In this document: positions 3,001-9,000 of the stretch, piece by piece
How the letters are laid out: every line of letters starts with the position of its first letter
Numbering within the stretch: the stretch's first letter is position 1
From: Escherichia coli
GTDB lineage: Bacteria; Pseudomonadota; Gammaproteobacteria; Enterobacterales; Enterobacteriaceae
DNA: 64,000 bases
Assembly (NCBI RefSeq): GCF_001677475.2
Contig: NZ_CP015229.1
Strand: one strand, 5' to 3'
Made by a program: the position numbers

Positions 3001-6000
3001 GTTGTTAGCTCAGTCGGACAGAGCAATTGCCTTCTAAGCAATCGGTCACTGGTTCGAATCCAGTACAACGCGCCATACTTATTTTCCTGGCTCGCTTTTG
3101 CGGGCCTTTTTTGTATCCGCGCCACGCCCGGCGCATATCAAAAACCACAGAGCCTTTCAGGGGTGAGCTTACGGGATGGTCAGTGTGACTTTCTCTGTGG
3201 GCTGGTCACCCCCGGGCGCAGGCTCACCCACTAAAAGGAAAAGTCACGATGTTTGGTATTTTCAAAAAGAAAACACGCAAGGCCATTACCGAAGTGAAGA
3301 AGATGGAGAACCGCGACGCAGTGGAGGCGACCGTCTGGGGCGCGTATTCCATTGCATTTGCCGACGGCACCTGTGACGCGAAAGAAATCGCGGTACTGGA
3401 GAAAACCATTGCAGCACTTCCTGCCTTTGCTCCGTTCTCGGGTGAGATTGCACAAATGAGTGCAAATATCCGCGCCCGTTATGAAGCATCGCCGCGTTCT
3501 GCCAATGCCGAAGCCCTCCGCCAGCTGGCTGATATTGCAGGTACTGATGACGCAGTTAATGTGCTGTGCCTGTGTCTGGATATCGCTGACCAGGACGGCA
3601 TTGGCCCGGATGAAGAAGCGCAACTGAAGAAAATTGCTCAGGCGCTGCAGCTACCACTGGAGCAGTACCTGTGAAAAGTGCGCGCCTTGTGCTGGCTGCC
3701 ATCCTGCTGTTTCTGGTAGTGGCAGTGGATTTCACCGGACGGCTGATGTCGGTACTGGCAGATGGTGTGCTGGTGGCGGGGATGGTGATAATGGTGTTGC
3801 CTTTGCTGAAGAGTGTAAAAAATACACAGACGTGAAATGTTAAATCCATCACAATTAAGTTGATTGGGTATTGCTGGTTGACGGAGCTTTTGTTAGAAAA
3901 AATTTGCATGGTGGATCCCCCCGGGTGGTGGGCATATGAGTGATGTATGTTTCTGTTCTGCTCCTTTATTATGCTGATTCGGGTACTGATACTGAATTCA
4001 TCGGGAGGCACCCGGCACCATGCAAGCATGCCCCTCTCCTGAGGGGCTTTTTATATAAACAGGTTCTACAGATTCTATCAGACATGCGTAAACTTATTAT
4101 GGCCTGTGTCGTTTTAGCCCGTAGGGGCATATTTGCAGAATGCAACGGTTATTAAAGCATTCATTAAATACGTTATCTGAATTTGCAGGGCATTCTTGGC
4201 TGTTTTTGATTAAATCCCAGAATCTTTTATTGAATGGTACAACGTTGTAAATGGTTACAGGTAGCACTTTGTTATTGAGTACGATACCTGTGTGAGTCAG
4301 CGTAAATATACTTTCAGGAGGTAAGAAAACATCCGATTGATACCAGATTATTAATTTTATTTTACTCCATATGGCTGAAAAAGATATTCCACATGATGGC
4401 TGGATAACTGTATCAATCACAATCCACTTCATTTAGTTTCCTTATTTATGCCTTGCTGGTGATGTTCTGAAAAGTATAAATGATAATTTTGAATGTAAAC
4501 CATAGAGCAGAACTGTTTTTCTGATTTTGTTTATTGTTTATTTAAAATGCAGGGTGGTTTATATCTCGTCTTGTAGTTTATCCATGCATATCTGCTTTAT
4601 GATGAGGTTTTATTTAAAGTATGGTTTTGTGTTTTTTTCTGTATTGCATGTCAGGTATTTTAAAGAATTATTTTTTAGATGGTGGAAAGAACCATGGCAT
4701 TTAAACACTATGATGTTGTCAGGGCGGCGTCGCCGTCAGATCTTGCGGAAAAGCTGACACACAAACTGAAAGAGGGCTGGCAGCCATACGGCGGACCGGT
4801 TGCCATTACGCCGTACACACTGATGCGGGCGGTGGCTATTGAAGGAGAGCCACAGGTCGGCCCTTCATCTGAGCCGGACTGGTTCTACGTGGTTGTGCTT
4901 ACCGGACAGTCCAACAGCATGGCCTACGGTGAAGGGCTTCCGTTACCGGATTCTTACGATGCTCCGGATCCGCGCATTAAACAGCTGGCGCGCCGCAGCA
5001 CGGTAACTGGCATTTTTAGCAGAGCCTGAATGCCATAATCACGGCTCCCGGAGTTGGCCGTCAGTGGGTGACACGGGCGGCTTTTTGTTTTTCTTTACTT
5101 TCATTTTCTGTCGGCGGGGACGGAGACATACATCATATGGAAAAAATTACAACAGGTGTGTCATACACCACGTCAGCGGTGGGGACGGGATACTGGTTAC
5201 TGCAGCTGCTGGACAGGGTTTCCCCGTCTCAGTGGGCGGCAATAGGCGTGCTGGGGAGTCTGCTGTTTGGTCTGCTGACGTACCTGACGAACCTGTATTT
5301 CAAAATTAAAGAAGACCGGCGTAAGGCGGCGCGGGGAGAGTAGACGATGAACCATGAAGAAATGAATCAGCGCATAAGTTGCCTGGAAAATGAAATCACT
5401 GAACTGAATAAAAAACTGTCGGTGCTGATGGTTTCTGAAGATGAAAAAAAACGCCGCGATGAGCAGGAAGCAGCGTTTTACGATGATTGCATCAAAATTG
5501 CTCGCAGGACCTTTGCGAAGATTTTGCAGGAAAAGTTTTTACCGACCGCATTGTCAGAAAAGCACTCCATTACAGTTAAAAGTGCCGGAGAGGAAGGCAA
5601 TAAACGTTATTTTATTGCGTCTGCACCGGATAAAGACCAGGAATGGGGGGGGGAATCGGCCATCTTTTATTGTGACAAGCGATGACTGGAATATCACGAT
5701 CCGTGAAGATGGAAAAGTAACACCAGCATCGCACCAGCACAGTGAGGCGCTCATTGAATTTGCCATTGATTACCTGAAGAACAATAAAAAGCAGGGACTA
5801 ATGAAGCGCATTGGTCGTTGCATGGGATATCTGCAGGTAGCTGCTGAGATTGAAGCGCTGGCCAGTGGTGCGGACAAGGATGCTGTTGTGCGGGAGGCTC
5901 TTCTTCGTGATTTTGATAATCCACCCTTTAAAAAAGTGCCGGCTTACTGGTTTCATCCAGGACTGACTTATCTTAAAGGACGTATATAAGCTGGCTCGTT

Positions 6001-9000
6001 ATCTGTTGCCGGATAATCGACGGAAGATGCGTTCTTTTTGTGATTTGGCGTAATGATGATCCCACTCACATTCAAGGTAGTTTAATTCTTCGTTTAACCA
6101 GTCATTTATATTGTCTTTCAGACGTAGAAGCATGGCTGGTGTTAATATTCTGGACATAATGTCGAGAGTTGGTGGTGTGAGGTGTCCATACGGTTCAGCC
6201 TGAATGGATTTTACTGCTTCGTGGTTTTGCTGAATGAGTTTAAGGAATGCTGATTTAAATTGTTCATTCATGGCCTGCATGCAGGCGGTATATTTATGTT
6301 CATCGTTATACATTGCTAAATCCTCGACGGGAATTGTCAGATATATTTCAGCCATCAGGTAAAACACCAGTGCCCACCACTGGCGGGCTGAAGACTTAAC
6401 ATATCCAGGGATTCGGAACCGATAAATCCTGATAAATATCCATGAACACCAAAATCAAATACGGTCTGTCGGCTGCCGTTCTGGCGCTGATTGCCGCAGG
6501 TGCGCCTGCGCCTGAAATCCTCGACCAGTTTCTGGATGAAAAGGAAGGTAACCACACCACGGCATACCGTGATGGTGCGGGGATCTGGACCATCTGCCGT
6601 GGAGCCACCCGGGTGGATGGTAAGCCTGTTATTCCTGGCATGAAGCTGTCAAAGGAAAAATGCGACCGGGTTAACGCCATCGAACGTGATAAGGCGCTGG
6701 CATGGGTGGAGAAAAACATCAAAGTGCCGCTGACCGAACCCCAGAAAGCGGGGATCGCGTCATTCTGTCCGTATAACATTGGCCCCGGTAAGTGTTTCCC
6801 GTCGACGTTTTATAAACGAATTAATGCAGGTGATCGAAAAGGTGCCTGCGAAGCGATTCGCTGGTGGATTAAGGACGGTGGCAGAGACTGCCGTATCCGC
6901 TCAAATAATTGCTACGGTCAGGTATCCCGGCGAGATCAGGAAAGTGCGCTGGCGTGCTGGGGAATTGACAGATAAGCAGAATATTTTTGCTGAAAAATGA
7001 CGTTGGCCAACGTGGGCGGATAACGCGAAATCCTGCGAACTGGCGAAATGTAAGTGAGTAAAGTCAAAACTGTTGTTTCACGCTGAGGCACCGCAATGGT
7101 GCCTTTGTCATTTTCTGCGCATCTCACGCGCATATCACAACACAGAACCTTTCAGGATGACCCTTGAGGATACCGGTTTGGCTATCGGTGCTTTTCTGTG
7201 GGCCGGATTCCTGTGAGACAAGGTTCATCACTAAAAGGAAATAACCGATGAATATGATGACCGTGCCGTTTCACGGCAACTCTCTTTATGTGGTTAACCA
7301 TAATGGCGAGCCATACGTTCCCATGAAGCCTGTTGTTGCGGGGATGGGGCTAGCCTGGCAATCACAGTTGGCTAAGTTAAGCAGCGTTTTGCGTCAACTA
7401 TAACGGAAATCGTTATGGTTGCTGAGGATGGGAAACGACGCAATATGGTATCCCTGCCACTTCGAAAACTTGCGGGCTGGTTACAAACCATCAATCCCAA
7501 CAAAGTTAAACCTTAAATCCGCGACAGGGTCATTCAGTATCAGGAAGAGTGCGACGATGTTCTCTATGAATACTGGACGAAGGGTTTTGTCGTTAATCCC
7601 CGTCGAATGAGCGTGATGGAAGAACTCAATCAGGTATGCGCTGACATGAAATGGGATAAAAACATCGCCAGTTTGTTTGGTACCGGGCTGAGTGAGTGGA
7701 AGTCGGTTAAAGCTGCACATGTATCAAAAATTCGCACGTTGATAAACGAAGCGAATCTGCTGATTGATTTTGTCCTGGCTGATACAGGCAAAGGAAAAAT
7801 CACAAAGACGGATTGATGGAGTGGTGACCAATGATATCAGACAAACTCATAACGCTGGCGAAGATCCTCTGTGTAATTGTCGGCATTTCATTTTCACTAA
7901 TGCTGGTTGCTCTTTTTCTTTCCCTGGGCTGGATGATGTTGTCTTCGTCGGGGATGCTGGGGTGAGCATAAACCGAATGCTTTCCGCGTTTACCGTTATT
8001 CTGCTGGTGGTCTGTGGTGCGCTGTGTCTGGCAACAAACCATTACCGCGATAACGCCATCACTTACAAAGCGCAGCGCGATAAAAAAGTCAGTGAGCTGA
8101 AGCTGGCGAACGCCACCATTACTGATATGCAGCAGCGCCAGCACGATGTTGCTGCGCTCGATGCAAAATACTCGAGGGAATTAGCCGATGCGAGAGCTGA
8201 AAATGAAACTCTGCGTGCTGATGTTACCGCTGGTCGTAAGCGCCTGCGGATCAACGCCACCTGTCCAGGCTCCGTGCGTGAAGCCACCGCCACCGCCCGC
8301 GTGGGCAATGATGCCAGCGTCGAACTCTCTCCAGTTGCTGGACGAAACGTTCTCGGTATCAGAGACGGAATCATCAGCGACCAGGCAGCATTGAGAACGC
8401 TTCAGGAATATATCCGTACTCAGTGCCTGAAATAGTTTTTTCAATGCGTTGTATCGTCGCCGTATTTCCGCATTAACAGAGACCGCAGCCCTACGGGGAG
8501 ACTCCTCTGCGCGAGTGTGCGGGGATAATCAAAAACGATACACACCGGGGTTTACTGCGTTAACGGAGCGCGGCGTTGTCCCCTCATAGTCGCCTGGCCG
8601 GTGCGATGGTGGAAGAAACCGGAACACATTACAAAATGATAACAATTATCATTTTTCGGGTCCTCCTGGCGGGGTGGGCCTGTACACGGGGCGGGTCGGC
8701 GCGGAAAAAAGCGCATTTTTGTGATTTTATCGTCATCATCATCATGTATGTAAACTGTTGTTTTTAATGTAATTGATGCAAAAAAGATGATGGTTGTGGC
8801 CAATTTTTGTTCGACATCTTTGTGTGGCGGCATTTCTTTACAAAAAAACAGAATCACTTCTGTTCAGAGGGGTATGTGGAGGAGGCGTAGATGGACGGCG
8901 AGCTGAAAAATATGAAGTTAAATATTAATCAACTGGCAGCCCTTTCAGGCCTGCACCGGCAGACCGTTACCGCAAGAATGGCGGATGTTCCTCTTGCTCC

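Follow-up and report, generated by a model that had tools for sequence, protein, structure and literature searches.

Results

Two leaders in the late region of a lambdoid prophage

The window analysed here is a 64,000-nucleotide (nt) stretch of Escherichia coli DNA (assembly GCF_001677475.2, contig NZ_CP015229.1), whose first 12,000 positions are the late region of a lambdoid prophage resembling Shiga-toxin (Stx) phages. Read along the strand, this region holds a helix-turn-helix (HTH)/methylase-type gene, two tRNA genes with a degenerate one, a terminator and a first leader (copy A), then a TerB-family gene, a DUF3927/TciB-like gene, the small RNA (sRNA) STnc100, a holin gene and a lysozyme gene, and finally a second terminator, a second leader (copy B), a frameshifted ant gene and Rz. 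The two leaders, stretches directly in front of the TerB-family gene and of ant, are the subject of this work.

An earlier note on this DNA had described a structured element duplicated before unrelated prophage genes, with a covarying distal stem and a helix abutting the ribosome-binding site (RBS), and our analysis bears this description out. Aligned with each other, the copies share the ordered blocks GCGCATATCA, CACAGA, CCTTTCAGG, TCTGTGGGC and ACTAAAAGGAAA, and a profile hidden Markov model built from homologues finds exactly two matches in the window, namely the two leaders (E = 1e-37 and 9e-31). The sites had been placed correctly; the true 5' end, however, lies about 12 nt earlier, since a further hairpin, P0, belongs to the element. 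With P0 included, copy A extends over 3119-3251 and copy B over 7117-7250 (Table 1). The proteins encoded downstream are indeed unrelated, one belonging to TerB phrog_632 and the other to Ant phrog_524.

Table 1. Positions in the window of the parts of both leaders and of the features next to them
Feature	Position	Strand	Sequence, partner or remark	Basis
Terminator-like hairpin with T-run, 3' of tRNA cluster, directly 5' of copy A	3089..3116	+	stem 3089-3106, tail TTTTTTGTAT	intrinsic-terminator-like
Copy A, P0 hairpin	3119..3134	+	GCGCC ACGCCC GGCGC	6/6 P0 pairs with two-sided changes, 100% of cells paired; RNAalifold on unsupervised alignment
Copy A, P1 5' arm	3145..3152	+	CCACAGAG; partner 3193-3200 (pseudoknot)	alignment, covariation
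Copy A, candidate anti-Shine-Dalgarno	3153..3158	+	near-invariant CCUUUC; CCUUU complements AAAGG at 3234-3238	alignment; RNAalifold
Copy A, P2 5' arm	3159..3170	+	AGGGGTGAGCTT; partner 3220-3232	alignment, covariation, RNAalifold
Copy A, P3 5' arm	3173..3183	+	GGGATGGTCAG; partner 3202-3212	hand alignment
Copy A, P1 3' arm	3193..3200	+	CTCTGTGG; apical loop of P2/P3 hairpin	alignment, covariation
Copy A, P3 3' arm	3202..3212	+	CTGGTCACCCC; includes the earlier note's first motif GGTCACCC	hand alignment
Copy A, 3'-side bulge between P3 and P2	3213..3219	+	CGGGCGC (family consensus GNGYNM)	read from alignment
Copy A, P2 3' arm	3220..3232	+	AGGCTCACCC-A-CT; includes the earlier note's second motif GCTCACCC	alignment, covariation, RNAalifold
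Copy A, Shine-Dalgarno	3234..3238	+	AAAGG; ATG at 3249	sequence
TerB-family (TciA-like) gene behind copy A	3249..3674	+	phrog_632 'tellurite resistance', E = 2e-64	ORF; RefSeq annotation of homologues
STnc100 sRNA	3877-4052	+	3' of TerB/DUF3927 pair; ends in terminator	Rfam, 93.7 bits
Terminator-like hairpin 3' of lysozyme gene, directly 5' of copy B	7085..7114	+	stem 7085-7105, tail TGTCATTTTC	
Copy B, P0 hairpin	7117..7131	+	GCGC ATCTCAC GCGC	alignment, covariation
Copy B, P1 5' arm	7140..7147	+	ACACAGAA; partner 7194-7201	alignment, covariation
Copy B, candidate anti-Shine-Dalgarno	7148..7153	+	CCUUUC	alignment; RNAalifold
Copy B, P2 5' arm	7154..7166	+	AGGATGACCCTTG; partner 7219-7232	constrained fold, alignment
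Copy B, P3 5' arm	7167..7177	+	AGGATACCGGT; partner 7202-7212	constrained fold, alignment
Copy B, P1 3' arm	7194..7201	+	TTCTGTGG; apical loop	alignment, covariation
Copy B, P3 3' arm	7202..7212	+	GCCGGATTCCT	alignment, covariation
Copy B, conserved bulge	7213..7218	+	GTGAGA	alignment
Copy B, P2 3' arm	7219..7232	+	CAAGGTTCATC-A-CT	alignment, covariation
Copy B, Shine-Dalgarno	7234..7238	+	AAAGG; ATG at 7248	sequence
ant antirepressor gene behind copy B, frameshifted/shortened	7248..7403	+	51-amino-acid ORF	

The leaders share a pseudoknotted fold

From 5' to 3', the leader consists of the P0 hairpin, a linker, the 5' arm of P1, the segment CCUUUCRG and the 5' arms of P2 and P3, then the apical region, the 3' arms of P1 and P3, a 6-nt bulge of the form GNGYNM and the 3' arm of P2. 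After this arm come one bulged purine, CU, A, the Shine-Dalgarno (SD) sequence AAAGG and, 7-10 nt further on, the AUG; the 3' strand of P2 ends 4 nt 5' of the SD. P2, a lower stem of about 12-14 base pairs (bp), and P3, an upper stem of about 7-11 bp, together form a long bipartite hairpin with the conserved 6-nt bulge on its 3' side. P1 is a pseudoknot, in which the apical loop of the P2/P3 hairpin pairs with the strand just 5' of the hairpin and thereby crosses both P2 and P3.

Comparative alignment establishes four covarying helices in the predicted RNA, P0, P1, P2 and P3. The covariation statistics come from a hand alignment of 13 sequence types, which was kept intact through MAFFT by N padding and which leans towards the structure. 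In this alignment standard pairs fill 93.1% of cells, as against 37-42% when the partners are slid by 1-3 columns, two-sided changes occur in 29 of the 39 pairs, and none of 500 shuffles reaches any of the observed pairing measures. The mutually crossing helices each covary: P1 has three two-sided pairs and 90% of its cells paired, and two-sided changes are seen in 10 of 14 pairs of P2 and in 10 of 11 pairs of P3. The leader thus displays what distinguishes a pseudoknotted structured RNA, crossing helices each with compensatory changes, and for P1 and P2 the unsupervised alignments tell the same. RNAalifold run on these MAFFT alignments recovered P0 and P1 and, separately, P2 together with a CCUUU:AAAGG helix; P3 is missed there, because MAFFT misaligns it. 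Types G, H, I and P22, which lie outside the hand alignment, form the same helices from new sequences.

The distal stem whose compensatory change between the copies had been noticed earlier is P1. Copy A has CCACAGAG/CTCTGTGG and copy B CACAGAA/TTCTGTG, and the change proves to be real; other hosts carry more compensated versions of the same helix. Across types P1 has been replaced in compensated form at least six times, the versions being CACAGAG/CTCTGTG, CACAGAA/TTCTGTG, CGTAGAG/CTCTACG (in Erwinia phages), CCAAGAA/TTCTTGG (in Serratia and Edwardsiella), CCAAAGA/TCTTTGG and CCAGAG/CTCTGG (in Cobetia); to these P22 contributes CCACCGA/TCGGTGG, and types G, H and I contribute three further ones.

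It had also been suggested that in copy A GGGTGAGC pairs with either of two downstream motifs in mutually exclusive structures. The second of them, GCTCACCC, adjoins the RBS, and its pairing with GGGTGAGC is helix P2, confirmed by covariation; the first, GGTCACCC, mainly serves in the 3' arm of P3, where its partner is GGGATGGTCAG. An alternative pairing nevertheless exists. Since the P2 5' arm is similar to the P3 5' arm in all types, CAGGR has a second possible partner in YCCUG, at the base of P3. In most types the P2 5' arm could in this way form 5-9 bp with the P3 3' arm; shuffled sequences, though, allow helices almost as long, and the alternative on which mutual exclusion would depend is not clearly above chance.

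One part of P2 is variable in length. The G-run at the start of this helix (CAGGGG) has grown to 6-10 G in some type-A copies (L069 12017, L036 5819, L035 329), which could be slippage, or sequencing or assembly variation, in the helix next to the anti-SD segment.

The G.U pairs of the helices are valid on the sense strand only, which argues for an RNA rather than a DNA site. Were the element conserved at the DNA level, it would be a promoter or operator, a recombination junction of mobile cassettes or a target of insertion sequences (IS). This we consider very unlikely. The element does mark the 5' edge of exchangeable gene cassettes, truncated copies are found in loci L028, L039 and L048, and in PPompW phages the IS110-family element ISEc20 is inserted inside it, yet a DNA site would account neither for compensatory changes in four helices, with G.U pairs restricted to one strand, nor for the fixed spacing to SD and ATG. 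A promoter was moreover rejected because no sigma-70-like site lies near copy A or copy B and because the linker, in which a -10 element would be expected, shows no conservation. A conserved upstream small open reading frame (ORF) was rejected as well, since the ATGs within the leader shift or vanish between types in the alignment.

As to the interrupted copies, 11 PPompW phage records (LC567818.1 15677-15727 and ten others; hits H54-H64) match only the first 54 nt of the query 3110-3163, which comprise flanking sequence and the beginning of leader A up to CCTTTCAGG, and continue from the partial leader into ISEc20. The leader may be a site that IS elements favour.

Predicted closure of the Shine-Dalgarno sequence

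Between P1 and P2 lies CCUUU, a segment complementary to the SD sequence AAAGG and invariant in the 13 types. In types G and H this anti-SD reads UCUUU and pairing is kept through U.G; in type I and P22 the closure consists of CCU:AGG plus CUUUG:CAAAG. The CCUUU:AAAGG helix is the one that RNAalifold returns from the unsupervised alignment, and minimum free energy structures close the SD with CCU(UU) in four of six types of one folding set and, in addition, in P22 and in Cobetia, where the predicted helix continues into the P1 arm. The predicted probability that the SD is unpaired lies at 0.02-0.29 in 12 of 13 types, compared with about 0.55 when the upstream part is shuffled. The leader has a conserved anti-SD segment that is predicted to pair with the SD, a feature of SD-sequestering leaders. 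The 5' arm of P1 and the anti-SD are contiguous, therefore P1 and SD closure may compete.

These observations point to the leader as a cis-acting translational gate, which would occlude the SD of accessory genes in late operons; we put the probability of this, the best-supported interpretation, at roughly 0.55. Several facts weigh against it. Copy A is the sole type with its SD largely open (unpaired probability 0.62 in the nested-fold ensemble). The anti-SD:SD pairing is invariant and hence incapable of showing two-sided covariation. The z-scores of single-sequence folds, which range from -0.8 to -4.8, are modest, and P3 is supported by per-sequence constrained folds and by the hand alignment, which was fitted to the structure.

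The leaders do not belong to the C4 family

The arrangement had been likened to the control of ant by the c4 antisense RNA of phage P1. This kinship is not supported. The Rfam models C4 (RF01695, gathering threshold 45 bits) and isrK (RF01394, gathering threshold 50 bits) give no match on the leaders even at E <= 10, in 5 kb as well as in 161-nt slices, and none at the gathering threshold on the leaders of ten related loci (P22, L060, L068, L111, L121, L157, L159, L194 and others). Over all families of Rfam 15, the covariance search produced only chance-level matches on the leaders (<=14.6 bits, E >= 2). In locus L194, a prophage of Edwardsiella ictaluri, the same type of search found a genuine isrK and C4 pair at 6899-7087 (C4 86.5 bits; isrK 6899-6975, 74.9 bits), and it is therefore able to see a family member. 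Two leader copies lie in L194, 6 kb downstream of this pair.

The mode of pairing differs, too. In the genuine C4 of L194 the loop UUUCUGUGGUCA complements UGACCACAGAGG at the RBS of the gene that follows, which is Rha-like (region 7125-7145). The loop arm of the leader, at 3193-3200 or 7194-7201, pairs instead with 3145-3152 or 7140-7147, about 90 nt upstream of the SD; its partner is the 5' flank, it complements no RBS-overlapping target, and the RBS faces the invariant CCUUU. C4 also has a first hairpin and a 17-bp closing stem, both absent from the leader.

A c4-type antisense system like that of phage P1 immI, in which a small RNA processed from the leader would act on the RBSs of ant and terB, we regard as extremely improbable. 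What recommends the idea, apart from a hairpin loop that pairs with a distant segment upstream (P1), is that the loop and target words of the L194 C4 (UUUCUGUGGUCA/UGACCACAGAGG, sharing CUGUGG/CCACAG) are the same as in leader P1, and that the unpaired GUGCRA on the 3' side of the leader resembles GUGCAAA of that C4; the 8-mer likeness was, however, noticed post hoc and in a single C4. The immI c4 of P1 and P7 (RF01695, icd-ant) and the leader would both exert post-transcriptional control of an antirepressor-type gene by pairing within one transcript, but the leader serves genes other than ant, and lytic phages, as well. The IsrK-orf45-anrP mRNA of Salmonella Gifsy-1 is reported to be translationally inactive by default, and its leader (RF01394) is likewise an RNA element upstream of a prophage antirepressor operon; the element described here does not match its model, and in L194 the genuine isrK is a separate element. 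The leader is not a member of the C4 or isrK family and shares with them only the general idea of intramolecular pairing before antirepressor-type genes.

Distribution of the family

The family comprises at least 11 sequence types, found in prophages of E. coli, Salmonella (including the rha locus of P22), Klebsiella, Serratia, Edwardsiella, Siccibacter and Cobetia and in lytic Erwinia jumbo phages, with hundreds of phage and prophage copies in all. A BLAST search of phage genomes placed leader A in 34 phage records, Klebsiella phages included, and in all of them ahead of a TerB gene; in lytic Erwinia jumbo phages, at 72-73% identity, it again follows a tRNA and precedes terB. Leader B was found in 305 phage records, before ant, KilA-N and other genes, and a third variant in 75, P22 rha among them. 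Among 5,426 complete E. coli genomes, 875 carry the type-B leader, the median being 3 copies and the maximum 10. Searching with an nhmmer profile uncovered types G, H and I, which are divergent. Scans of viral contigs and of a part of the species-representative genomes added Serratia, Edwardsiella, Siccibacter and, from the Halomonadaceae, Cobetia; the latter scan used a loose pattern, and most of its 120 loci are chance matches, those in the four genera just named being real, so that the taxonomic range is a lower bound.

Gene families found behind leaders are TerB (phrog_632), Ant (phrog_524), KilA-N-type (phrog_129 and phrog_1136), Rha-like (phrog_518 and phrog_2657) and a periplasmic protein (phrog_6856), together with HNH endonucleases and several unidentified ORFs. 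The cassette of leader and gene belongs to the Q-dependent late operon downstream of Q in all annotated lambdoid and P22-like phages that were examined; there it occupies the gap between Q and holin, a site between lysis genes, or the interval between Rz and terminase. Of 78 distinct upstream contexts, at least 64 have a terminator-like hairpin with a T-run no more than 70 nt from the leader.

Some individual genomes may be mentioned here. Two types meet in one phage, Escherichia phage CharmingMan (L246, regions of about 2224-2348 and 3501-3638), which carries a P22-like leader and a type-A leader; the former lies just after Q, before an HNH endonuclease gene, and the latter before terB. In the jumbo phage Asesino a TAXI-family solute-receptor gene is found near terB, and in locus L007 a periplasmic protein follows the leader. 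tRNA genes precede leaders in the Erwinia phages and in locus L060.

The start of P22 rha

In P22 (NC_002371 36500-41724, our locus L248), the leader lies between Rz and rha (orf201). The annotated GTG start of rha (39575 in NC_002371, 3076 in L248) falls inside the apical loop of the leader, and 23 codons downstream an in-frame ATG (39644 and 3145, respectively) follows the SD of the family and matches the N-termini of other Rha-like ORFs. For these reasons the start of P22 rha is probably mis-annotated, with ATG 39644 rather than GTG 39575 as the candidate initiation codon. Rha is reported, in work cited in PMC4936722, to block phage growth in hosts deficient in integration host factor (IHF) and to be harmful only in such hosts.

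Neighbouring features of the window

The complete E. coli genomes nearest to this region are 95-99% identical to it over parts of its length. Ahead of copy A, Rfam and ARAGORN agree on two tRNA genes, one at 2822-2897 with anticodon CAT, given as Ile in RefSeq homologues, and one for Arg (TCT) at 2999-3075; between them RefSeq homologues have a 'tRNA-OTHER', which neither program calls here. Behind copy B the ant gene is interrupted (7248-7610), leaving 51 amino acids compared with at least 189 in homologues, and leader B is intact. The full-length homologue of this ant belongs to phrog_524 'anti-repressor Ant' (E = 2e-112), and in a 98.9%-identical E. coli prophage the same gene is annotated as 'frameshifted'.

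Discussion

The leader appears to be a device of a known kind, an SD-occluding cis-regulatory RNA, but its sequences and predicted fold set it apart as a new pseudoknotted family, widespread and apparently undescribed. Searching the literature by conserved words and by topic, we found no description of the element, and neither the main text of Tree et al. 2014 nor Zhu et al. 2026 mentions it.

If the leader is a translational gate, each copy would act as a structured leader of ~130 nt within the long, Q-antiterminated late transcript and would set translation initiation of the accessory gene behind it. The terminator upstream would limit transcription of the cassette to terminator-resistant (Q-modified) polymerase. 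In the transcript thus made the folded leader would keep the SD closed, and risky products (antirepressors, Rha, KilA-N, HNH nuclease, TerB) would be made little, or only on cue, despite full late transcription. Several ways of opening the gate are conceivable: P1 could compete with the anti-SD:SD helix, the 5' strands of the two being contiguous; the alternative P2-5'/P3-3' pairing could form; or the leader could be cleaved or bound by a host factor.

Cleavage leads to another explanation, in which the leader is a processing signal for RNase III (or another endonuclease) of the kind known from T7 and lambda. The RNase III sites of T7 early mRNA and of the lambda N leader are bipartite hairpins with an asymmetric internal loop, and processing there alters downstream translation. 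Cut in its 3'-side bulge, the leader would free the accessory-gene mRNA from the late transcript and set its stability and translation. Its architecture of P2, 6-nt 3'-side bulge and P3 does present the two helical segments and asymmetric internal loop of such sites, and like them it lies in long polycistronic phage transcripts, just upstream of an RBS. Its occurrence in hosts and phages with different transcription machinery, lytic Erwinia jumbo phages among them, would suit a ubiquitous host RNase. On the other hand, RNase III sites need no pseudoknot, no invariant CCUUUCAGG and no fixed distance to the SD, all of which are conserved in the leader; the P1 pseudoknot, the P0 hairpin and CCUUUCAGG distinguish it from the T7 and lambda sites. 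Processing as the primary role seems to us unlikely; it is compatible with the gate, since cleavage could be the opening step.

Control of SD access by compact pseudoknots has well-known precedents. SAM-II, SAM-V and the preQ1-II class are SD-sequestering pseudoknot riboswitches, and in the ribosomal-protein operators rpsO/S15 and alpha operon/S4 a pseudoknot adjacent to the RBS governs access of the 30S subunit, autogenously. Like the riboswitches, the leader is pseudoknotted and ends at the SD, to which it would control access; unlike them, it matches no Rfam family, comprises ~130 nt with a 25-bp bipartite hairpin and precedes genes with no common metabolic theme. In the ribosomal-protein operators one protein controls its own mRNA, whereas the leaders stand before genes for unrelated proteins, and a factor that binds them would have to act in trans.

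Could the leader itself be a sensor, that is, a riboswitch-like RNA or a protein-binding operator? Its pocket would be formed by CCUUUCAGG, the GNGYNM bulge and the apical GGGC, and the binding of a small molecule, or of a factor from host or phage, would switch the closed hairpin to the alternative P2-5'/P3-3' pairing or back. The conserved unpaired nucleotides of the junction, the pseudoknot, the alternative CAGGR:YCCUG pairing of 5-9 bp and the sharing of one element by unrelated genes, as in a regulon, are consistent with such a role, and the conditional harm reported for the leader-bearing P22 rha in work cited in PMC4936722 hints at host-dependent control. Against a ligand pocket speaks the looseness of the junction, which reads UCUUUCAG in types G and H and holds a longer insert in type I and in P22; the alternative helix barely exceeds that of shuffles, and the gene set points to no candidate ligand. 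Nor did the window contain a trans-acting complement: the duplex energies of STnc100 with either leader do not leave the range obtained for shuffled sequences, and elsewhere in the window there are only chance-level complements of 10-11 nt. All in all, a sensor is quite unlikely. If the leader were one, it would be a new class of sensing RNA in temperate and lytic Enterobacterales phages (and in a Halomonadaceae genome), a doubtful proposition, and it would read the state of the host or of the infection from a small molecule or from a protein of the host, for instance an IHF-dependent factor, timing the translation of antirepressor, Rha/KilA-N, HNH nuclease and TerB. Next to the gate, for which the evidence speaks best, RNase III processing and sensing are live rivals or parts of the same mechanism.

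The translational gate, if real, would be a common control module of the late-operon "moron" genes in many lambdoid, P22-like and Stx phages, among them ant, which in Shiga-toxin phages is found between the lysis genes, and the classic P22 gene rha, and at least six unrelated protein families would have their regulation explained by one RNA fold. Recognition of the leader would correct gene starts, as with the annotated start of P22 rha inside it, and a gate so portable and independent of the host could be put to use in engineering. Should the sensing role hold, it would explain in molecular terms why the toxicity of Rha from P22 and phi80 depends on IHF, and the leader, if confirmed, makes this dependence experimentally approachable.

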